Part shown: in pieces, positions 3,984 through 33,305 of the stretch | Numbering within the stretch: position 1 is the first letter of the stretch | Layout: each line of letters begins with the position of its first letter | From: a phage | Reading direction: 5' to 3' (one strand) | Length of the DNA stretch: 35,772 nucleotides | NCBI GenBank assembly: GCA_019566835.1 | Contig: GCA_019566835.1_3045.2 | Made by a program: the position numbers and the translations under genes | The notes under the pieces: model-generated | Database searches by the model: none | What the model was told of the DNA's origin: nothing | What the model saw: only the letters and a program-made list of their open reading frames with translations

Positions 3984-4661
3984 ATGGCAATTGTAGGTGT
4001 TCCTGGCTGGATTGGTGAATCTGCCGTGAATGAAACTGGACAACGCTGGATGGATGCTGCAATGAAAGCAGTTCGCGTTTCAGTTCCTGGCTGGATGAGT
4101 TCAATGGCTGGACAATCTAAAGAAGTATATTATAGTGTTGGTGCTAGTAATTCTTATAATAAAGACACACTAATAAATTGGATAAAAGCTCAAGGCAGTA
4201 CTCCTGTTGTTATTACTATTACAGGAAATATTGTTTCTCAATCTACTGGTGTTCCATGCTTAGATTTTCCTAGCTCATTAACTAATGCGTATGTTACCTT
4301 AAATATTAATAGCGGGGTTCATGTATTAGGTCGGGGAGGAAATGGCGGAAGTAACTCTGCTGGTGGAGCAGGAGGAACTGCAATAAATAACGGAATTGGA
4401 ACTCGTTTAAGAATAAACAATAACGGTATTATTGGTGGCGGTGGCGGTGGCGGCGCTGGTGCTAGATACCATCCTTTCCCTCAAATGGATATGATATTTG
4501 GTGGCGGCGGAGGTCGTCCATTTGGCGCTGCTGGCAAATCTTCATATATTCAAGGTGGTACTGGAGGAACTGTTCACTCGGGTGGTGCTGCGGGTAAAGC
4601 TGTTACTGGTAATGCTCCAACTTGGACTAAAGTTGGTACAATATACGGTTCAAGAGTATAA
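3984..4661 (+). CDS. 38: gp38 tail-fibre adhesin, glycine-rich-motif type
   Basis: 225-aa ORF directly downstream of gene 37 with SD AAGGA. C-terminal half holds several glycine-rich motifs (GRGGNGGSNSAGGAGG, GGGGGGGAGA, GGGGGRPFGAAG, GGTGGT, GGAAG) typical of T2/T6-type gp38 adhesins. Confidence 0.8.
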   Translation: MAIVGVPGWIGESAVNETGQRWMDAAMKAVRVSVPGWMSSMAGQSKEVYYSVGASNSYNKDTLINWIKAQGSTPVVITITGNIVSQSTGVPCLDFPSSLTNAYVTLNINSGVHVLGRGGNGGSNSAGGAGGTAINNGIGTRLRINNNGIIGGGGGGGAGARYHPFPQMDMIFGGGGGRPFGAAGKSSYIQGGTGGTVHSGGAAGKAVTGNAPTWTKVGTIYGSRV

Positions 4662-7443: not shown

Positions 7444-8079
7444 TCACAGTTCAGATGCTACAGTGATTACTGCTTCAATGTTTTCTGCCGAGCGTTTAAT
7501 GTCAAGATACACATTACCGTTTTTAGCGATTTTACAAGACATTCCGATATCAGTAAATTTCTGAATATGATGTTCCATCATTTTGTATCCAAAAATTCGC
7601 ATATTTCCATTATTGTTAATTTCAAAATTGCGAATTCCGTGGGTGCGTTTTTCTAAAATAGCGAGATAGTTACTGCGATAAGTTTCAACCTTTTTAAGAA
7701 CAAATCCATTTTCATCTAAAAGTTTTAACATAAAGTCTTTATCTTCTTCCATATCAGAAGTAATCTCGCGAGCTTTACGAGTTGCTCGTTTTTTCAGCAG
7801 TTCAGGAGCGTTTTCCTGTGCATATAAAGTTGCTGCGTTTGAAATAATATCTTGCGCTTCGCCTGTGATGATTAATCCATCACCTGATTTCTCTACCAGG
7901 CCTTTTTTAATCAATACCCCAATATTACTATTAACTACTGCGTTACCTAAATCTGGATGCACCTCACGAACTTCTGCGGCTGTAATGAAATCTTTCTTAG
8001 CAATAGTAATTAAAATCGCAGCAGTTTTTTCATTCAGAACATCGTTAGAAGCTTTGATGATGTAAGTTACTTTAGACAT
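7444..8079 (-). CDS. motA: Middle transcription activator MotA
   Basis: 211-aa ORF, MSKVTYIIKASNDVLNEKTAAILITIAKKDFITAAEVREV...; length and sequence match T4 MotA. Confidence 0.95.
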   Translation of the reverse strand: MSKVTYIIKASNDVLNEKTAAILITIAKKDFITAAEVREVHPDLGNAVVNSNIGVLIKKGLVEKSGDGLIITGEAQDIISNAATLYAQENAPELLKKRATRKAREITSDMEEDKDFMLKLLDENGFVLKKVETYRSNYLAILEKRTHGIRNFEINNNGNMRIFGYKMMEHHIQKFTDIGMSCKIAKNGNVYLDIKRSAENIEAVITVASEL

Positions 8080-8120
8080 TTTCTAATCTCCGTAATTCTG
8101 TATCAGTAGTTGATAGTTGT

Positions 8121-8150
8121 ATAGTACCACAGTATGCTTTGGTTGTAAAC
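8121..8150 (-). promoter_or_regulatory. T4-type early promoter upstream of motA
   Basis: Minus strand reads GTTTAC, 18 nt, GTGG-TACTAT, with AT-rich UP region 8151-8180. Confidence 0.65.
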
Positions 8151-8174
8151 CGTTTTGTGAAAAAAATTTTTGAA

Positions 8175-8203
8175 ATAAAAAAGGGAGAGCCGAGGCTCTC
8201 CCT
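8175..8203 (-). terminator. Rho-independent terminator
   Basis: Perfect 9-bp GC-rich inverted repeat GGGAGAGCC/GGCTCTCCC followed on the minus strand by a 6-U tract, just downstream of the 49-aa ORF. Confidence 0.7.
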
Positions 8204-9988: not shown

Positions 9989-10144
9989 TCAACTATTTTT
10001 AGAACCAATGTACGCGAATAATGATAAAATCGCTAATACGCCCTGAGCTGATGCTTGCAAAAATACTGAAGTTTCTCCAGTTATTACTGTTCCGATGCAT
10101 AAAAAGAACCAACAGAAAAAGGCTATACCGTGAACAAATTTCAT
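9989..10144 (-). CDS. Small membrane peptide (51 aa), possibly Ac
   Basis: MKFVHGIAFFCWFFLCIGTVITGETSVFLQASAQGVLAILSLFAYIGSKNS with SD GAGGAAAAT; lies between stp and gene 52 where T4 carries ac. Confidence 0.45.
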   Translation of the reverse strand: MKFVHGIAFFCWFFLCIGTVITGETSVFLQASAQGVLAILSLFAYIGSKNS

Positions 10145-11286: not shown

Positions 11287-11400
11287 TCACATAAATCCAA
11301 AGTAAACGTTTAATACATCAATCATTAAAACGATTGGGAATATACTCAAAACTATTAGTATTATAACTACATTCCATATAGCTTTAATAATCTTTTTCAT
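11287..11400 (-). CDS. Tiny membrane peptide (37 aa)
   Basis: MKKIIKAIWNVVIILIVLSIFPIVLMIDVLNVYFGFM with SD GGAGGAA; sits directly downstream of an early promoter. Confidence 0.5.
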   Translation of the reverse strand: MKKIIKAIWNVVIILIVLSIFPIVLMIDVLNVYFGFM

Positions 11401-11428
11401 TTTCTGTTCCTCCGTAGTTGATAGGGTA

Positions 11429-11458
11429 ATAGTACCACGGAAGAACAGTCTTGTAAAC
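11429..11458 (-). promoter_or_regulatory. T4-type early promoter
   Basis: Minus strand reads GTTTAC, 18 nt, GTGG-TACTAT. Confidence 0.6.
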
Positions 11459-11564: not shown

Positions 11565-11647
11565 AATAACCTCATTACAAAAGTAAATGTTAAACAAATT
11601 ACTGGAATACTAATTAACCAAACAAAACACCACCATAGTGAACTCAT
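11561..11647 (-). CDS. Tiny hydrophobic peptide (28 aa), candidate
   Basis: MSSLWWCFVWLISIPVICLTFTFVMRLL; ATGA overlaps at both ends. Confidence 0.25.
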   Translation of the reverse strand: MSSLWWCFVWLISIPVICLTFTFVMRLL

Positions 11648-11907
11648 AGCTCAATCTCAGCGATTTTCATTTCATTACTATTAATAGCCGCTTTAAGACT
11701 ATCTGAAAGAATTACATTCCAGTGGTCATTCATATGACCATTAACTAAGCGTGTAATTTCTTCAGGAGTTGAAAAATAAGGCTGATCAGACTCCCAATGC
11801 GATAATCCTAAGCGAGTATAAATCATGCCTTCATCATCGCTAGAATATTCAACTGACACAAACTCATCAGTTATTTTATGTTTAGCGTAATAAAATTTAA
11901 ATTTCAT
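11644..11907 (-). CDS. Hypothetical protein (87 aa)
   Basis: Start taken at MKFKFYYAKHK with SD GGAGAA, directly downstream of an early promoter. Confidence 0.6.
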   Translation of the reverse strand: MKFKFYYAKHKITDEFVSVEYSSDDEGMIYTRLGLSHWESDQPYFSTPEEITRLVNGHMNDHWNVILSDSLKAAINSNEMKIAEIEL

Positions 11908-11941
11908 TTTATTCTCCAAATCCGTATCAGTTGATAGTTGT

Positions 11942-11971
11942 ATAGTACCACGGTCCTTGTGGCATGTAAAC
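11942..11971 (-). promoter_or_regulatory. T4-type early promoter
   Basis: Minus strand reads GTTTAC, 18 nt, GTGG-TACTAT; overlaps the 3' end of denB. Confidence 0.6.
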
Positions 11972-16232: not shown

Positions 16233-18049
16233 TACTGGCTCATCCATTCTTTACGAAGGTCAGCATTATCTCCCATGAGCATTTCAAAAAGCTCTTTCCA
16301 GTTCTCAGGAAGTTTAACAACATCATATACTGGATTTTGAATCATTTCACGATATTCAGATTTTTCCAAAGAGCCAAGTCCTTTAATATAACGGATGCTA
16401 TGTTTAGGTAGAGCATCTTTGGCACTCTCATATTCAGCGACTGTATAAAACCATTCTTGTTTTTTACCGACCTGAGCGATGATTACAGGAGTTTTGACAA
16501 AGCGAATTCGTCCTTGCTCAAACAATTCTGGCCAATTACTAAAAAATCCGAGCAGAGAAGGATAAATGCTTCCTAGACCATCATGGTCAGCATCAGTCAT
16601 AATAGCAATATTGCGATAATTCATGTTTTCAGCTTTTTCACCAAGAACTAATCCAGTGATTGCGCAAATATCAAATAGTTCTTTGTTTTTAAGCATATCT
16701 GCATAAGACATACCCCAACTGTTGAGAACTTTACCACGCAATGGATAACCACCATGAAGTTCTTTATCACGAACATCAATAAGATATCCGATAGCAGAAT
16801 CACCCTCAGTCAAGAAAAGAGTAGTATCAGCATCTTTACCGCACAGATTAGCTTTAATATGTTTATGAACCTTTGCCTTAGAAGCCTTTTTAGCTGCTTT
16901 AGTTTCAGCTGCTTTTTCTGCTGCCAATTTACGAGCTAGTGCAGCTTCAATAATTGGCATTAAAATTGCTTCATTATTTAAAATAGCGCGTGAAATCTTT
17001 TTAGCGTCAAGTTGAATATGACTACGGATTTCACCAAATGGAGAAGTCAAACGCTCTTTAGTTTGAGAATCAAATCGCATGTTTTTCATATCACGAACAA
17101 ACATAACGATAGTCAAACATTCTTTAACGCGTGCTTTAGTTACATCAATTTTGAACTTACGTTTGATTTGTGGAATAAGGTCTTCACAAATATCATCCAT
17201 AACACAGTCAATGTGATGGCCACCATTCTTAGTATGAATGTTATTGACGTATGTTAATTGACGAAATCCATCCGGTGAACGACCAACCGCAATAGAACAA
17301 TTTTCTTGTTCTTGAACAATAGCATGTTCATCATACTGTAGTGCATATTTCTTAAAATTGCCCTGAACCTTTTTACCATTAAAGGTAAATTGAATATCAG
17401 GATAAACAACAGCAAGTGTCTGGAGACGATCTAGTGTAATGTCAAGATAAACTTGGGACAGCTCATTAGTTTCAAATGACATAAAATCTGGAATGAAAGT
17501 AACACGAGTTCCTTTCCATTTTCCAGGAATAGTTTCCCAGGATTTATTTTCCATGCCATTTGAACAACGAACTACAATATTATTTTGACCATCGCCAGTT
17601 TCACCGACAAACATCACAGAAAAAATGTTAGTTAAACTAGAACCAACACCATTCATACCACCGGTGACACGTTCTTTATCATCACCAAAGTTACCACCCG
17701 CTTTTGGAATAGTCCAAGCAGCAACTGGACCAGGAATTTCTTCACCGGTAGGTGTTTTAACCATCGCTTGTGGAATACCACGACCGTTATCTTCAACTGT
17801 TACTTGATTGTTTTTAATAGTAACATTAATTTTATTTGCGAATTTAAACTTAGTACGAATACCTTCATCTACTGAGTTATCGATAATTTCATCAATAAGC
17901 TTAACAAGACCAGGTACATACTGAACACTTTCCCATTTACCAAACAGAAAGCGCTCATGCATTTCATTAGCAGAAGAGCCAATGTACATGCCACTACGCT
18001 TTTTGATATGTTCAATATCGCTCAGAATTTTAATTTCATTCTTAATCAT
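16232..18049 (-). CDS. 39: DNA topoisomerase II large subunit (GyrB-like) gp39, uninterrupted
   Basis: 605 aa from the ATG at 18049 (SD GAGGATAAG; the ORF-track start at 18052 is GTG). N-terminal GHKL ATPase motifs (DEIIDNSVDEG, EDNGRGIP) and a C-terminal Toprim-like region sit in one frame. Confidence 0.92.
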   Translation of the reverse strand: MIKNEIKILSDIEHIKKRSGMYIGSSANEMHERFLFGKWESVQYVPGLVKLIDEIIDNSVDEGIRTKFKFANKINVTIKNNQVTVEDNGRGIPQAMVKTPTGEEIPGPVAAWTIPKAGGNFGDDKERVTGGMNGVGSSLTNIFSVMFVGETGDGQNNIVVRCSNGMENKSWETIPGKWKGTRVTFIPDFMSFETNELSQVYLDITLDRLQTLAVVYPDIQFTFNGKKVQGNFKKYALQYDEHAIVQEQENCSIAVGRSPDGFRQLTYVNNIHTKNGGHHIDCVMDDICEDLIPQIKRKFKIDVTKARVKECLTIVMFVRDMKNMRFDSQTKERLTSPFGEIRSHIQLDAKKISRAILNNEAILMPIIEAALARKLAAEKAAETKAAKKASKAKVHKHIKANLCGKDADTTLFLTEGDSAIGYLIDVRDKELHGGYPLRGKVLNSWGMSYADMLKNKELFDICAITGLVLGEKAENMNYRNIAIMTDADHDGLGSIYPSLLGFFSNWPELFEQGRIRFVKTPVIIAQVGKKQEWFYTVAEYESAKDALPKHSIRYIKGLGSLEKSEYREMIQNPVYDVVKLPENWKELFEMLMGDNADLRKEWMSQ

Positions 18050-18119: not shown

Positions 18120-18388
18120 TATTTAAAACGAATAGTTGAATCCTTAAAGAACAGCCCAGAACATACTGTTCCTTCTACTTTCTGCCCGGTAGGTCCAATA
18201 GCACGAAATCCAGTATGTTGGAAATCATTTTCAGAGCAACCGAACCAGTTATATCCAGTGATTTCAATATTCGTAAAACCACTTGATGATAAAATTTTAG
18301 TTGCATTATCAGCATCAGTACATCCTACTAAAGATACTGCTAATACTAATGCTGCGATAGAACGATTAATATATTTCATAATTTTCAC
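18119..18388 (-). CDS. Putative lipoprotein (89 aa)
   Basis: N-terminal signal peptide ending in lipobox LVGC (SIAALVLAVSLVGC). Confidence 0.65.
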   Translation of the reverse strand: MKIMKYINRSIAALVLAVSLVGCTDADNATKILSSSGFTNIEITGYNWFGCSENDFQHTGFRAIGPTGQKVEGTVCSGLFFKDSTIRFK

Positions 18389-18756
18389 TTAAATTTAATA
18401 GCTTGAAGAAGACTAATAATTCTCAAGCGACTTCTTTCATCTTTAACTGTAAAGGAAAGAGGGTCGCCAGATTTCATGGTAATAGTGCATTCAAAATCAA
18501 AATCTTCTGTGACTTCTTCGAAGAAGTCAAATTCTTCAGCATAAATTAGAACATTACTCTGAAAACTGTGAAGAATTTTTCCGTTATTTCCAGACGCTGT
18601 ACTAATCATCGTAACATTATGACCTTTCATATCTTCAACGATAAATTCGCTTGTAGATATTACAGCATTAATAGAACCATTCCTATAAATAGCAGACATT
18701 AGATATTTCTTTTCTTCGCCTTCGCGAATACGATATTTCTTACCGATTTTAAACAT
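18385..18756 (-). CDS. Hypothetical protein (123 aa)
   Basis: ORF with SD AAAGGA; ATGA overlap with the downstream gene. Confidence 0.65.
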   Translation of the reverse strand: MFKIGKKYRIREGEEKKYLMSAIYRNGSINAVISTSEFIVEDMKGHNVTMISTASGNNGKILHSFQSNVLIYAEEFDFFEEVTEDFDFECTITMKSGDPLSFTVKDERSRLRIISLLQAIKFK

Positions 18757-19591: not shown

Positions 19592-19861
19592 TTAATTGAA
19601 CAGTGGAGCGATGCGTTTCAGAAGAGTAGCAGCACCTTTAGCGAATTTTACATCATGAAAAACAGTTTCTTCTTCTGTAACAACTCGAACTTTAATATTT
19701 TCACAATCCCAATTTTTACGAACAATCTTCAAAAGCTGCAGTAAATCTTTACATTCAGCAATATCGATAACACATCCACGAGAATCTTCCATTATCGCAC
19801 GATAACCGTAAGCCATACCATAATCATTGAAAGATTGCTCGATGATAATTAAGTTTTCCAT
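19592..19861 (-). CDS. Hypothetical protein (89 aa)
   Basis: Start taken at MENLIIIEQ with SD GGAGAATAAA. Confidence 0.6.
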   Translation of the reverse strand: MENLIIIEQSFNDYGMAYGYRAIMEDSRGCVIDIAECKDLLQLLKIVRKNWDCENIKVRVVTEEETVFHDVKFAKGAATLLKRIAPLFN

Positions 19862-19885
19862 TTTATTCTCCAAGTTGTTTTCTGT

Positions 19886-19928
19886 ATCAGTAGTTGATAT
19901 TGATATAGTACCATAATCAACTACTGAT
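19886..19928 (-). promoter_or_regulatory. Promoter-like element with extended -10 inside a 13-bp inverted repeat
   Basis: Minus strand reads TGG-TACTAT with no GTTTAC at -35; the -10 is bracketed by ATCAGTAGTTGAT and ATCAACTACTGAT. Confidence 0.35.
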
Positions 19929-19968
19929 GTATATAGTTTTATGAAAAAAATTTAAACTTTATGCAAAT

Positions 19969-21391: not shown

Positions 21392-21895
21392 TTAATCTAA
21401 GGTAATAAAGCCTTTTAATTCGGCATGTGACTTGCGGAACATTACTTGATGCCCACCAATGATAACTTTATCTTCAGGTACTTCGTATACAGCGAGATAA
21501 AATCCTTTAGAAGCTAATTCTTCACGCTCTTCTCGTGTGAACCATCTCATCATATCATATTCACTAGCAAAAGCAAAATGATAAAGAGCTATAAACCATC
21601 CTGGAATATAGTGATCTACGCCTACATATTCTTCTTTCTCAAAATTAGTATTAATTGCTATATTAGCATTTTTAACTAATAGTTTGTCTTCGTGCGGAAG
21701 AGGAATTCTTTTATTATCATTACTATGATGCATAAAATTAGGTCTGTCATAACCTACGTGTAATAACCACTCTTCGCTCCATGAATCCATTATACTCCTG
21801 TACGGCGTTATTTGAACACAAAGATCTCGACGTATTGTTATAGCATCTTCATAATTAAGAATACTAAATGATGATTCAACACGATAAATTTTCAT
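21392..21895 (-). CDS. Hypothetical protein (167 aa)
   Basis: Start taken at MKIYRVESS with SD GAGGATAAT, directly downstream of an early promoter. Confidence 0.65.
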   Translation of the reverse strand: MKIYRVESSFSILNYEDAITIRRDLCVQITPYRSIMDSWSEEWLLHVGYDRPNFMHHSNDNKRIPLPHEDKLLVKNANIAINTNFEKEEYVGVDHYIPGWFIALYHFAFASEYDMMRWFTREEREELASKGFYLAVYEVPEDKVIIGGHQVMFRKSHAELKGFITLD

Positions 21896-21922
21896 TTTAT
21901 TATCCTCAGTAGCTATGGTGTT

Positions 21923-21952
21923 ATAATACCACAACTAACCGAGGAAGTAAAC
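21923..21952 (-). promoter_or_regulatory. T4-type early promoter
   Basis: Minus strand reads GTTTAC, 18 nt, GTGG-TATTAT. Confidence 0.6.
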
Positions 21953-23122: not shown

Positions 23123-23369
23123 GAATAGCTTCCTCAAATTTAATTAGTAATTTACAGACACTTTCATCTAGTGTAATTACCGTATCTGTATTACTGTGAT
23201 ATGATTGTTTTTCAATTCGTTTAATTGCTAATATAGTATCACTTATAAGATAAAGCTTATGAAGGAGCTCAGCTCCTGTTACCATAACATCGAGATTATC
23301 TTGCTTATTAGTATGCTTCCTTATACCATCTATTAGACGATTTAAATATTTTGAATTGATGTTAATCAT
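23109..23369 (-). CDS. Hypothetical protein (86 aa)
   Basis: ORF with SD GAGG, immediately downstream of dda. Confidence 0.6.
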   Translation of the reverse strand: MININSKYLNRLIDGIRKHTNKQDNLDVMVTGAELLHKLYLISDTILAIKRIEKQSYHSNTDTVITLDESVCKLLIKFEEAIRGNN

Positions 23370-23375
23370 ATAGCC

Positions 23376-24695
23376 TCACACATAAAACACATCATAACGA
23401 CCGCGGGTGACACCAACATAAAGAAGTTGTTGAGCTAGTTCAGCATCTGCATAATGAATACAAGGCGTATAAATGAAAGCACGGTCTACAGACATACCCT
23501 GAGCTTTATGGAATGTTGATGCAGGAAGTGCTTTCACTTTACTGAACTGTGATTTAGCATCCCAAAAATCACTCCATGGAGCTTTTCCGCCTTTGTTCCA
23601 ATTTTTATAAGTTTCTGCCGTTTTACCTAAAAACAGGTTAAACTTATATAGCTCTTCATCAGATGAAATTATTTTAATCTTTTCACGATAATATTCATCA
23701 TCGCCGTAAGTTTCTACTGTTAAATCCCAATGACGAATTAAGTATTCTCCAGGAACACCACGAGCTTTAACAAACGTCGATGTATACTCTGCTTCTATAA
23801 TACGAACTAATTGCCCATTATTAAAAATAATTTCTGATACAGGCTTTCCATCAATTTTATATGTTTTAATTAATGGTTCCTGCATTACAATAATTTCACC
23901 GACAATAAAATCTTTATCAGTTTCAAAAATCTTTTTACGAATAATGCTATTTAACTTATCAACAGATTTATTCGTAAATGCCATCACACGATTTTCAAAC
24001 AAATCATCTAATGATTTAACAATTGAAAAATAATTTACCATAAAATCGCGTAAAGCGGTATCACCAGTAAATCCACGTACTCCATGCCCGTCAACAACTT
24101 TATCATAAATCCACTTACCGTTACGAACGTCAGTAGCTACATCAATAATAGGAGCATTACTGCGTTTAACTTCAGTGAGTTCACACTGATAAAAATCTTT
24201 ATGTGTAAAGAATGGACTGATATAAGCAGTATTTTCTCCTGGGTCAACAGGTCTAATTTGCTTATTATCCCCTATTCCAATTATAGTACACCACGGCGGG
24301 ATAGTTGAAAGCAGAATTTTAAATAGCTTTCTATCATACATTGACACTTCATCGCAGATTAATACCCTGCATTTAGCTAAATCTGGTACTTCTTTTTGTT
24401 CAAAAAGAACGTTTTCTTCATATGTTACCGGGTTAATTTTAAGAATACTGTGAATAGTACTCGCTTCTTTCCCCGACAGTTTTGAAAGAATCTTTTTAGC
24501 TGCATGAGTAGGAGCTGCTAAAATAATACCAGTTTCACCCGTAGATATTAAAGCTTCAATGATGAACTTAGTAAGAGTAGTCTTACCAGTACCAGCAGGT
24601 CCATTAATAGTTACATGATGTTTCTTTTCTTTAATAGCCCTCATAACAATGTTAAAGGCATTTTTCTGGCCTTCGGTCAAATCATCAAATGTCAT
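23376..24695 (-). CDS. dda: Dda DNA helicase (SF1B)
   Basis: 439-aa ORF with Walker A GPAGTGKT and DE box LICDEVSM; T4 Dda length and position. Confidence 0.93.
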   Translation of the reverse strand: MTFDDLTEGQKNAFNIVMRAIKEKKHHVTINGPAGTGKTTLTKFIIEALISTGETGIILAAPTHAAKKILSKLSGKEASTIHSILKINPVTYEENVLFEQKEVPDLAKCRVLICDEVSMYDRKLFKILLSTIPPWCTIIGIGDNKQIRPVDPGENTAYISPFFTHKDFYQCELTEVKRSNAPIIDVATDVRNGKWIYDKVVDGHGVRGFTGDTALRDFMVNYFSIVKSLDDLFENRVMAFTNKSVDKLNSIIRKKIFETDKDFIVGEIIVMQEPLIKTYKIDGKPVSEIIFNNGQLVRIIEAEYTSTFVKARGVPGEYLIRHWDLTVETYGDDEYYREKIKIISSDEELYKFNLFLGKTAETYKNWNKGGKAPWSDFWDAKSQFSKVKALPASTFHKAQGMSVDRAFIYTPCIHYADAELAQQLLYVGVTRGRYDVFYV

Positions 24696-29577: not shown

Positions 29578-29787
29578 TTAAATTACATGATTATTTATAA
29601 TAAATTCTCGCGGAACGTTAAAATATCCGATTTTAGTTAATATAACAACATCACCGTTAATAATTACCGGAGAATAATCTTCTGGAGTGTTAAATTTCCA
29701 ATGGGATCTAATATTATATCCATCAGAACCAAATGCTCGAGTAGCCGGTCTCCCGGCTTTTTGCCACGCGTAGAAATCAAATTTCAT
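29578..29787 (-). CDS. Hypothetical protein (69 aa; soc.1-type ORF)
   Basis: Small ORF between soc and gene 56. Confidence 0.55.
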   Translation of the reverse strand: MKFDFYAWQKAGRPATRAFGSDGYNIRSHWKFNTPEDYSPVIINGDVVILTKIGYFNVPREFIINNHVI

Positions 29788-29978
29788 TTTGAATGCTCTA
29801 TAATTAATTTTAAAGCTTCTTCACTGACAAAAATTTCGTCAGGACCTTCTATAACTTCAACCATACGAAGTTGATTAGTTAAGAGCTCACATACGAGCTC
29901 CTTGTTATAATCTTTAAATAGCTGGTCAATACGTTTCTTATGGGCTTTCTTAAGCTGACGCTTATTTAAACGAGCCAT
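29784..29978 (-). CDS. Hypothetical protein (64 aa; soc.2-type ORF)
   Basis: Small basic ORF overlapping both neighbours by 1-4 nt. Confidence 0.55.
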   Translation of the reverse strand: MARLNKRQLKKAHKKRIDQLFKDYNKELVCELLTNQLRMVEVIEGPDEIFVSEEALKLIIEHSK

Positions 29979-30496
29979 TAATAACCTCGGTCTTGACGAG
30001 CGAAGTTTTCAGCATTTTTCAGGTAATAAAGTTTAAAGATTTCTTCAGCCGACATTCCAAGAGCAATAAATTTATTCATGAAAAAGTGAAATTGGTCAAT
30101 CAGTTCAAATTTAATTTCAAGCTGATCTTCAGGAGATAAGTCTTGAATTTTCTTGGATTGCATTTCAGAATAACGTTTCTTCCAAGGTTTCCATACAGCA
30201 GAAGCTTCTTTTTCACCATTACTCATACCACCAAGAGAAGTATATAGCTCGCGAGTTTCGTCTGCGATATAATCGTCTTGGTTTCGCAGCCAAGCAAGAA
30301 CTTCTCCTGCAGTTTCAAGTGAATCAGGATGACGATTTGTTTCTGGTTTATCATTAGCCAAACGAATCTGTAAATGCCGCTGCATGTCAAGCATAACCTG
30401 CAATGGGTCAATACTGTGCATAATATACTCAGCATATGCACGATTTGCTTTATCAACACCTTCGATCAAATGAGCACATTCATTAAAGTGAGCCAT
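29978..30496 (-). CDS. 56: dCTP pyrophosphatase gp56 (MazG-like)
   Basis: Start taken at MAHFNECAHL with SD AAAGGAAAAATA, giving 172 aa; the ORF-track N-terminal extension is hydrophobic and lacks an SD. Confidence 0.8.
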   Translation of the reverse strand: MAHFNECAHLIEGVDKANRAYAEYIMHSIDPLQVMLDMQRHLQIRLANDKPETNRHPDSLETAGEVLAWLRNQDDYIADETRELYTSLGGMSNGEKEASAVWKPWKKRYSEMQSKKIQDLSPEDQLEIKFELIDQFHFFMNKFIALGMSAEEIFKLYYLKNAENFARQDRGY

Positions 30497-30530: not shown

Positions 30531-30556
30531 ATTATACAATAAATATATAAAGCAAT
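30531..30556 (-). promoter_or_regulatory. MotA-dependent middle promoter for gene 56
   Basis: Minus strand reads ATTGCTTTA (perfect MotA box), 11 nt, TATAAT, about 30 nt upstream of the gene 56 start. Confidence 0.55.
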
Positions 30557-30567
30557 AAGGAGGACAT

Positions 30568-32005: not shown

Positions 32006-32318
32006 ATGGCGCAGTAATATTTTCTGCATCATTTAGTAAATCATTAATTTCATCAGATAGCATAACACATGTACCTTTATTTCCTGTAATTGTTACTGCA
32101 CAATTACGAACGTTTTCTTTATCAAATTTTAGGTTAATATTTTCGTAGTGAAAATCCTTTAATGCCGAATATATCTTTAAAATGAAATTGTCTTTTACTA
32201 CAATAAACCCAACCTCACTATTAAAACGCGGTTCATGGAAACTGTAATAAACCTTTTCATCTATAAAATCGTATGAAATTTTTTCCATTTTTAAATATGA
32301 AAATTCAGAACTATACAT
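31962..32318 (-). CDS. Hypothetical protein (118 aa; 61.x position)
   Basis: C-terminal 14 aa SIDDQIFNAFMNRG are shared with the upstream 210-aa gene. Confidence 0.6.
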   Translation of the reverse strand: MYSSEFSYLKMEKISYDFIDEKVYYSFHEPRFNSEVGFIVVKDNFILKIYSALKDFHYENINLKFDKENVRNCAVTITGNKGTCVMLSDEINDLLNDAENITAPSIDDQIFNAFMNRG

Positions 32319-32953: not shown

Positions 32954-33247
32954 TTATTCGCCTGTGATTTCGGTTACGATATTTTTGTTATTAAAGTTTT
33001 TATCGCAATACAGAACATAATTATACTGCATTACACCACCAGACTTAAGTTGTTTTTGCACTTCAGCTTTCATTTCAGGACGATCGCGCTCAACGATATT
33101 CATAATATCCGCTTCAATTTGAGTTTCAACTTCAGTCTGATCTGCAGTCATAGACCATTCACACAAATCTTTATCATATCCTGCCATAGCAGGCTGAGTA
33201 GCACAAGAAGCCAAAGTAAAAATTGTAGCAAAAATAAATTTTTTCAT
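32954..33247 (-). CDS. sp: Spackle periplasmic protein Sp
   Basis: 97-aa ORF with a cleavable signal peptide (MKKFIFATIFTLASCATQPAMA); T4 sp size and 61.3 position; SD GAGGAG. Confidence 0.7.
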   Translation of the reverse strand: MKKFIFATIFTLASCATQPAMAGYDKDLCEWSMTADQTEVETQIEADIMNIVERDRPEMKAEVQKQLKSGGVMQYNYVLYCDKNFNNKNIVTEITGE

Positions 33248-33275
33248 GATAATCTCCTCAGTAGTTTATGTTTAT

Positions 33276-33305
33276 ATAGTATCTCAATTTCCAACAAAAG
33301 TAAAC
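33276..33305 (-). promoter_or_regulatory. T4-type early promoter upstream of sp
   Basis: Minus strand reads GTTTAC, 18 nt, TACTAT. Confidence 0.6.

Follow-up and report, generated by a model that had tools for sequence, protein, structure and literature searches.

The sequence that recurs downstream of several early promoters in this phage DNA is probably the start-site and initially transcribed consensus of T4-type early promoters, that is, a block that acts at the level of DNA, is kept by selection and is shuffled by recombination between promoter cassettes. The class of element is already known: each site is a T4-type early promoter of the ordinary kind, with its SD/RegB site. The window (the whole stretch of DNA that was analysed, 35,772 nt) belongs to a Tequatrovirus, with 95–97% identity to phages Aplg8, ECML-134, Sf24 and others by megablast. 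It is collinear with T4 through gene 37, t, asiA, motA, 52, ndd, denB, rIIB, rIIA, 39, dda, modA and 41 to approximately uvsX, and its early genes are on the minus strand.

Promoter cassettes in the window

A sequence-only reading of the window had reported that a leader of about 25 bp follows the −10 almost verbatim at four early promoters. The recurrence is real and the coordinates given for it are correct, on the minus strand: at four early promoters (Table 1) the −10 TACTAT is followed by (N4–6)CTATCAACTAC(TGATAC), for which the chance expectation is approximately zero. Positions 8100–8126 read exactly TACTATACAACTATCAACTACTGATAC. The stretch 19884–19910 is the same 27-mer with three mismatches, and 11924–11947 is the same sequence minus 3 nt, lost between CAACT and GATAC. 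At 11414–11434 the sequence is TACTAT-TACCCTATCAACTAC, with GGAGG immediately after it; TGATAC is gone and four of the five bases following the −10 are changed. The description fits the sites near 8100, 11921 and 19881, but is overstated for that near 11411. Two matches to the 27-mer are found in the window at up to three mismatches, compared to 0.00 expected from shuffles. The 10-mer TATCAACTAC has 10 matches at up to one mismatch (3.0 ± 1.8 expected), and its three exact matches in the window are all at the six cassette promoters.

Table 1. Promoter cassettes and related features of the window. SD, Shine-Dalgarno sequence.
Feature	Coordinates	Strand	Details
motA promoter	8121–8178	−	−35 TTTACA 8144–8149; 17-bp spacer ending TGG; −10 TACTAT 8121–8126; A/T-rich UP region; sequence following −10 acaaCTATCAACTACtgatacagaattacGGAGattagaaaATG
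motA conserved block	8100–8120	−	acaaCTATCAACTACTGATAC; spans −6 to +15; presumed +1 is A at 8114
motA SD/RegB site and ATG	8077–8091	−	GGAGATTAGAAA; ATG 8079–8077
Terminator-like hairpin	8182–8203	−	AGGGAGAGCC-tc-GGCTCTCCCT, then T-run; directly upstream of motA early promoter
ndd.4-homologue cassette	11398–11457	−	−35 TTTACA 11452–11457; 17-bp spacer; −10 TACTAT 11429–11434; block taccCTATCAACTAC 11414–11428; GGAGGAACAG 11404–11413; ATG 11400; sequence following −10 taccCTATCAACTACGGAGGaacagaaaATG
Cassette downstream of denB	11905–11970	−	drives 87-aa ORF; −35 TTTACA 11965–11970; 17-bp spacer; −10 TACTAT 11942–11947; acaaCTATCAACT(−3 nt)GATAC 11924–11941; GGAGAATAAAA 11907–11917; ATG 11907; sequence following −10 acaaCTATCAACTgatacggatttGGAGAATAAAATG
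89-aa ORF cassette	19859–19933	−	−35 TATACA 19928–19933; 17-bp spacer; −10 TACTAT 19905–19910; block atcaatATCAACTACTGATAC 19884–19904; GGAGAATAAAA 19861–19871; sequence following −10 atcaatATCAACTACtgatacagaaaacaacttGGAGAATAAAATG
Short version, motB.2 homologue	21893–21928	−	−35 TTTACT; 17-bp spacer; −10 TATTAT 21923–21928; aacaccatagCTACTGAGGAtaataaa; ATG 21895
Short version, sp/spackle homologue	33245–33281	−	−35 TTTACT; 17-bp spacer; −10 TACTAT 33276–33281; ataaacataaaCTACTGAGGAGattatc; ATG 33247
Regions differing from T4	16567–16632, 29599–30015, 30536–30557, 9991–10140, 18381–18754, 23144–23376, 32006–32316

A shorter version had been placed near 21900 and 33250, and is indeed present: it is CTACTGAGGA, shortly 5′ of the ATG at two promoters with −10 hexamers ending at 21923 and 33276 (promoters are named below by this end coordinate). 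When the six promoter regions are aligned with MAFFT, identity runs from the −10 to about +12. The conservation thus reaches into the 5′ UTR, as had been claimed, and is not confined to the −35 and −10 hexamers in otherwise AT-rich sequence.

The −10 is extended at all four main sites (gTGgTACTAT or aTGgTACTAT). The −35 at 19933, TATACA, is a 4/6 match. The UP region is A/T-rich and of the type aaaaattttttcacaaaac, with 0.86–1.00 identity to its T4 orthologues. The sites thus have the −35, the TGn-extended TAnnnT −10, the UP element, and the placement and orientation with early genes of T4-type early promoters. They are syntenic with T4 early promoters (Pe), the four main copies being positional orthologues of those at motA, ndd.4, ndd.6 and the cef region, while the short versions correspond to those at motB.2 and sp. 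For the motA promoter, the T4 counterpart at the orthologous position has a −10 ending at 163644. Between window and T4 orthologues, identity is 0.86–1.00 over the UP element, spacer and core; the 3′ leaders match fully, except that the 11942 copy lacks 3 nt.

Some smaller features of the motA promoter were also seen. The motA block at 8100–8126 is internally reiterated (tACTATaca-ACTATca-ACTACtg, with ACTAY in 8- and 7-nt steps), and the form shorter by 3 nt (11942, and T4 55355) has one ACT of ACTACT removed, which is consistent with slippage. The spacer of the motA promoter contains a word resembling a MotA box (8134–8143, plus strand, TATGCTTTGG). The form of this word in other genera is TGCTT(T/C)AAAC, located 7 nt 5′ of the −10; T4 and the window have it on the opposite strand. 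Its spacing is unfit for a middle promoter. It may be a site of MotA autoregulation.

Occurrence and position of the block in T4

In the T4 reference genome (NC_000866, 169 kb) there are seven exact copies of CTATCAACTAC, each 4 nt past a TACTAT −10 with a GTTTAC −35. Two copies with one mismatch are at two more promoters, and the block is therefore present at no fewer than nine T4 early promoters. The genes driven include motA, ndd.6, ndd.4, imm.1, e.8, trna.4, denV, nrdC.8, nrdC.10 and a remnant upstream of cef. Within Tequatrovirus the element is kept genus-wide: a 34-mer search matched 507 phage records, of which 495 had at least 99% identity, with about two seeded places per record; all were enterobacterial T4-like phages.

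Promoters were aligned on the −10, and +1 was taken to be the seventh nucleotide past the hexamer, which is the A of ctATCAAC and would fall at 8114, 11422, 11935 and 19898 in the four main window copies. The T4 promoter name Pe133295, for which the −10 ends at 133302, implies a start 7 nt past the −10, and the same distance separates −10 and start at 45 of the 52 T4 middle promoters that have been mapped. In the 10-member T4 family, positions −2 to +7 are invariant, while spacer positions −29 to −19 carry just 0.06–0.8 bit. The other T4 early promoters (n = 27) have a weaker c-T-A-T-C, with G at −4 to −1 in 0, 0, 1 and 1 of 27; the promoter sets were chosen by our own scans and the sequences are phylogenetically related, so that these and the other promoter counts are not independent samples.

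The distance from the −10 to the block is constant in the members compared from T4 and the window, whereas that from the block to GGAG is 0, 1, 3, 12, 14 or 18 nt depending on the member. The fixed first distance and the variable second one imply that the block belongs with the promoter and its start site rather than with the ribosome-binding site. A function at the 5′ end of the RNA would likewise be anchored to the start site, and position by itself would not separate a DNA role from an RNA role.

Conservation in other genera and among promoter classes

Comparison with related phages placed the block at the T4 orthologues and its core, CTATCAA (−2 to +5), also at early promoters of Mosig-, Dhaka-, Karam- and Gaprivervirus. 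RB69 early promoters have (C/T)TATCAA at the same position, including CTATCAACTAC at imm.1, while CTATCAACTAA and CTATCAACTAC are found in Dhakavirus and Gaprivervirus. A comparison of motA promoters covered 23 distinct sequences, taken from Mosig-, Dhaka-, Jiaoda-, Karam- and Tulanevirus-like phages in which MotA is approximately 41–100% identical. There is an A at +1 in all 23 and a T at +2 in 22; positions +3 to +9 are nearly all A or C, and there is no G at −4 to −1. Typical forms of the motA promoter in other genera are agaCCTATCAAAACAAAT and tacCTCATACCAAACAAAT. Genera in which MotA is just 50–70% identical still carry the core.

The 52 mapped T4 middle promoters contain no block of the CTATCAA type: T is found at +2 in 12/52, C at +3 in 10/52, and G at background frequency, although many of these promoters are inside coding sequence, which weakens the contrast between early and middle promoters.

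Aeromonas phage 50AhydR13PP (Tulanevirus) has its own repeated leader after the −10, agcYACAAGTTAAACAAA, at early promoters at 4438 and 8948. This suggests that such leaders may be variants of a single G-poor start block, each homogenised within its own lineage.

Leader RNA, SD and RegB site

The sequence-only reading had suggested a shared RNA-level signal. As a structural signal this finds no support: the six leaders fold with minimum free energies of 0 to −4.7 kcal/mol and z-scores of −0.25 to +0.87 against dinucleotide shuffles, none of them significant, and an Rfam scan of the whole window gave no family. A 5′ mini-stem, AUCA-N5-UGAU, amounts to −0.6 kcal/mol and is gone where GGAGG directly follows the block. 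A signal linked to the SD is not supported either, given the distance of 0–18 nt between block and SD compared to the fixed distance from the −10, and the conservation of the untranscribed positions −3 to −1.

The 3′ part of the leader is readily recognised. The RegB/S1 target consensus is GGAGRAYARAA (PMC3014915; PMC1702504), and GGAGAATAAAA at 11907–11917 and 19861–19871 equals it, while the sites in the motA and 11429 cassettes are one to three positions off. GGAG is thus followed by RAYARAA in unstructured leaders. RegB/S1 requires the GGA to be single-stranded, and sequences 5′ of GGAG boost cleavage non-specifically (PMC1702504); according to Durand et al. (2006), no specific sequence information is required upstream of GGAG (PMC1702504). 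Translation initiation, together with the inactivation of early mRNAs by RegB, accounts for the 3′ third of the cassette but not for the block.

Mosaic cassettes and inverted repeats

The cassettes are mosaics. In flagged non-orthologous pairs among 14 T4 and window cassettes, the core (−14 to +9) is 78–100% identical and most spacers only 31–44%. The T4 imm.1 cassette shares its spacer with ndd.4 (0.94), its 3′ leader with ndd.6 (0.95) and its UP element with e.8 (0.95). In the T4 cassette at 146846, the UP element matches that of motA (1.00), the spacer matches that of nrdC.10 (1.00) and the leader, which diverges at +4, is unique, and the e.8 and cef-upstream cassettes have a 3′ leader in common (0.95) but not a spacer (0.44). 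These incongruent identities of the UP, spacer, core and 3′ leader segments imply crossovers that fell in the −35 and −10/core blocks which the cassettes have in common, in agreement with the PeSL-mediated shuffling described for RB49/phi1 (PMC2839356). Very short homologies suffice for recombination in T4 (PMC9391042). The suggestion of recent promoter-cassette recombination in the sequence-only reading is thus half right: the mosaic segments speak for recombination, but it was not recent, and recent duplication is rejected because the spacers of most paralogues have approximately random identity and every one of the four window copies has a T4 orthologue.

At 5 of the 13 early promoters in the window (11429, 19905, 21923, 20915 and 33779) the −10 lies between the arms of an inverted repeat, and there the duplex between spacer and leader has −16.6 to −23.3 kcal/mol and z = −3.1 to −6.2; the value at 21923 is −23.1 kcal/mol (z = −6.0). 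At 19905 the core is a near-palindrome of 43 bp (19886–19928) centred in TACTAT, and there is a second, inverted copy of the block in the spacer. At 11429 a 15-nt inverted repeat (11404–11418 and 11434–11448) surrounds the −10 and includes the SD. At both 11429 and 21923 the SD is inside the 3′ arm, and consequently the SD would be masked in read-through RNA from upstream but not in transcripts initiated at the promoter itself. No bracketing stem was found at 8121 (which has only the upstream terminator hairpin), 11942 or 33276.

Proposed function and alternatives

Each cassette comprises, in order, an UP element, a GTTTACA −35, a 17-bp spacer, a TGn-extended −10 TACTAT, the start block, an optional filler and the SD. 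The start block, (N4)CTATCAACTAC, extends from about −6 to +9, and the transcript presumably begins pppAUCAAC. The filler, TGATAC and what follows it, is optional, and the SD doubles as the RegB/S1 cleavage site GGAGAATAAAA. We propose that the block most likely acts as part of the promoter DNA. It would supply the host sigma70 RNA polymerase with an optimal T(−1)A(+1) start, in agreement with the general preference for a pyrimidine at −1 and a purine at +1, and with a G-free, A/C-rich initially transcribed sequence that might ease escape. Fixing of the start site and promoter escape are plausibly limiting here, because these promoters hold polymerase very tightly. The core would be kept near-verbatim by purifying selection, and paralogous cassettes would recombine or undergo gene conversion with crossovers in the shared −35 and −10/core blocks. 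Selection is indicated by the conservation across genera, by the restriction of the block to early promoters and by its continuity with the conserved untranscribed positions −3 to −1. The anatomy of the cassettes, the anchoring of the block to the −10, its conservation across genera and restriction to early promoters, and the mosaic structure are observed; the position of +1 and the biochemical role of the block (start-site choice, escape) are what we infer. Known base-specific contacts of RNA polymerase end at about +2, and the conservation out to +9 is therefore not explained by such contacts. A stronger claim, that the start-anchored G-free block (−3 to +12, core CTATCAA) is a distinct cis element, serving either as a handle for selective early shut-off or as an escape-optimised initial sequence required for promoter strength on glucosyl-hmC DNA, we consider quite improbable.

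Several other explanations were weighed against a start-site consensus. Chance likeness in AT-rich intergenic DNA beside real −35 and −10 hexamers is refuted: the region is indeed AT-rich, and generic sigma70 promoter-pattern scans of the window give counts near shuffle level and are uninformative alone, but no 27-mer matches are expected from shuffles, all seven exact T4 11-mers are at promoters, and the conservation crosses genera. A function at the RNA 5′ end, in which an unstructured, G-poor and A/C-rich first 10–15 nt frees the SD/RegB site, recruits ribosomal protein S1 or turns the triphosphate end into a poor target for enzymes of RNA decay, so that the translation and half-life of early mRNAs are set by the start of the leader, would fit leaders that are essentially without structure, a block that starts at the presumed +1, and the need of RegB/S1 for single-stranded GGA with non-specific stimulation from 5′ sequences (PMC1702504). 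We nevertheless think it unlikely, in that the conservation is continuous with the −10 and the untranscribed −3 to −1, the distance to the SD/AUG ranges over 0–18 nt, no specific information is needed 5′ of GGAG (Durand et al., PMC1702504), the block is missing from middle-promoter transcripts, and there is neither a significant fold nor an Rfam family.

The mosaic cassettes could also be read as pure history, with duplication and gene conversion of cassettes (shuffling like that of the PeSLs described below) and a downstream block that has no function. T4 recombination at very short homologies (PMC9391042), the recombination of RB49/phi1 PeSL cassettes between −10 and ATG (PMC2839356) and the two window-versus-T4 indel breakpoints at a cassette ATG are all compatible with this. 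It is improbable, given that most non-orthologous spacers are nearly random beside a well-conserved core, that the core is kept at orthologous motA promoters where MotA is only about 50% identical and at RB69 paralogues, and that the four copies were already present before the window phage and T4 diverged. Alternatively the block, which is partly palindromic (TATCA-N5-TGATA), might be a DNA operator that binds a phage or host protein, such as a factor that silences early promoters a few minutes into the infection. It is confined to the early class and covers the start site, promoter 19905 has its second inverted copy, and early shut-off needs neither AsiA nor ModA (PMC2988021). The TGATA half is, however, missing at window 11429, at T4 53914 and 65385 and in other genera, leaving only the asymmetric CTATCAA core as general, and MotB, the one early DNA-binding protein considered, is without sequence specificity (PMC6070864); an operator is thus very improbable. 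Three further candidates did not fit the block. For an IHF site (consensus WATCAANNNNTTR, compared by eye) only the ATCAA part fits, and the TTR part fails in T4-type and RB69-type blocks. The block matches neither the start-site preference of NAD capping nor the sigma70-dependent pause element, a −10-like hexamer in the transcribed region.

Relation to known elements

There is no essential difference between the window copies and the T4 Pe ('uber' UP/-35/TGn/-10 sigma70 promoters), of which they are direct orthologues: they have the same GTTTAC(A/T) −35, 17-bp spacer, TGn, TAnnnT −10 and UP region. The legend to Figure 2 of Hinton (2010) describes the T4 early promoter consensus only up to the start site (PMC2988021). 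Nolan et al. (2006) found a preference for C at −3 to −1, in logos that end at the start site, position 0 (PMC1524935). Judged on this legend and these logos, the block at −3 to +9 is under-described rather than new. Full-text literature searches for the sequence strings of the block gave irrelevant matches only, and a search for T4 start-site maps or leader studies gave nothing usable.

The PeSLs of RB49 and phi1 are repeated cassettes of about 100 bp, with an early promoter, a stem-loop and SD plus ATG, in plastic early regions with modular shuffling (PMC2839356). The window resembles them in part, in that stem-loops overlap or bracket the −10 at 5/13 promoters but not in the motA, 11942 and 33276 cassettes. 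It differs in having GTTTAC-type −35 sequences and AT-richer stems, in place of the sigma70-consensus TTGACA and GGGG/CCCC stems of RB49, and the two are not homologous. Arbiol et al. (2010) likewise describe the T-even elements as analogues of PeSLs and not homologues (PMC2839356).

At the 3′ ends of the cassettes, 11907–11917 and 19861–19871 are exactly the RegB/S1 target GGAGAAUAAAA, and the motA sequence GGAGAUUAGAA is a known good substrate, motA RNA being documented as such (PMC1702504). This target accounts for the SD-proximal part only, and not for the CTATCAACTAC block.

The T5 early promoters offer a further likeness. At very strong sigma70 phage promoters the initially transcribed sequence has an effect (T5 N25 compared to N25anti), information downstream of +1 is conserved, as in T5 early promoters, and escape is probably limiting. 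By analogy, conserved information past +1 may be a shared property, although the sequences differ from the T4 block.

The leader is therefore ordinary and not a new RNA signal, because it consists of the start-site part of the standard T4 early-promoter cassette and the usual SD/RegB site. For annotation, the cassette sites should be treated as ordinary T4-type early promoters, with no new RNA element. What remains of value is that conservation of the promoter continues to about +9, is a property specific to early promoters, and has a long history, being found in several genera of Tevenvirinae. If the block governs start-site choice, escape or shut-off, it would help to explain how the phage out-competes host promoters and then silences its own early genes. 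Through its 20–25 bp of identity, the shared core can also mediate the shuffling of accessory ORFs.

Gene context

Two of the cassettes drive ORFs that T4 retains only as remnants. The 87-aa ORF (MKFKFYYAKHK..., 11644–11907, minus strand) corresponds to an 8-codon T4 remnant, MKIAEIEL, and the 89-aa ORF (MENLIIIEQSF..., 19592–19861, minus strand) to one of 11 codons, MENSLKVLILF. In both, the breakpoint of the T4 remnant is at the ATG of the driving cassette, and the T4 deletion junctions resemble ATGAAA microhomology. Homologues of the 87-aa ORF sit after denB in Mosigvirus and Dhakavirus, which implies that T4 has lost it.

There are other differences from T4 (Table 1). The gene 60/mobA insertion is missing, so that 60 and 39 form a fused topoisomerase subunit, and dam is also missing. 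About 416 nt are present in place of segF. The window has several insertions of 150–370 nt, one of which is a 51-aa ORF (9989–10144) near stp/ac.
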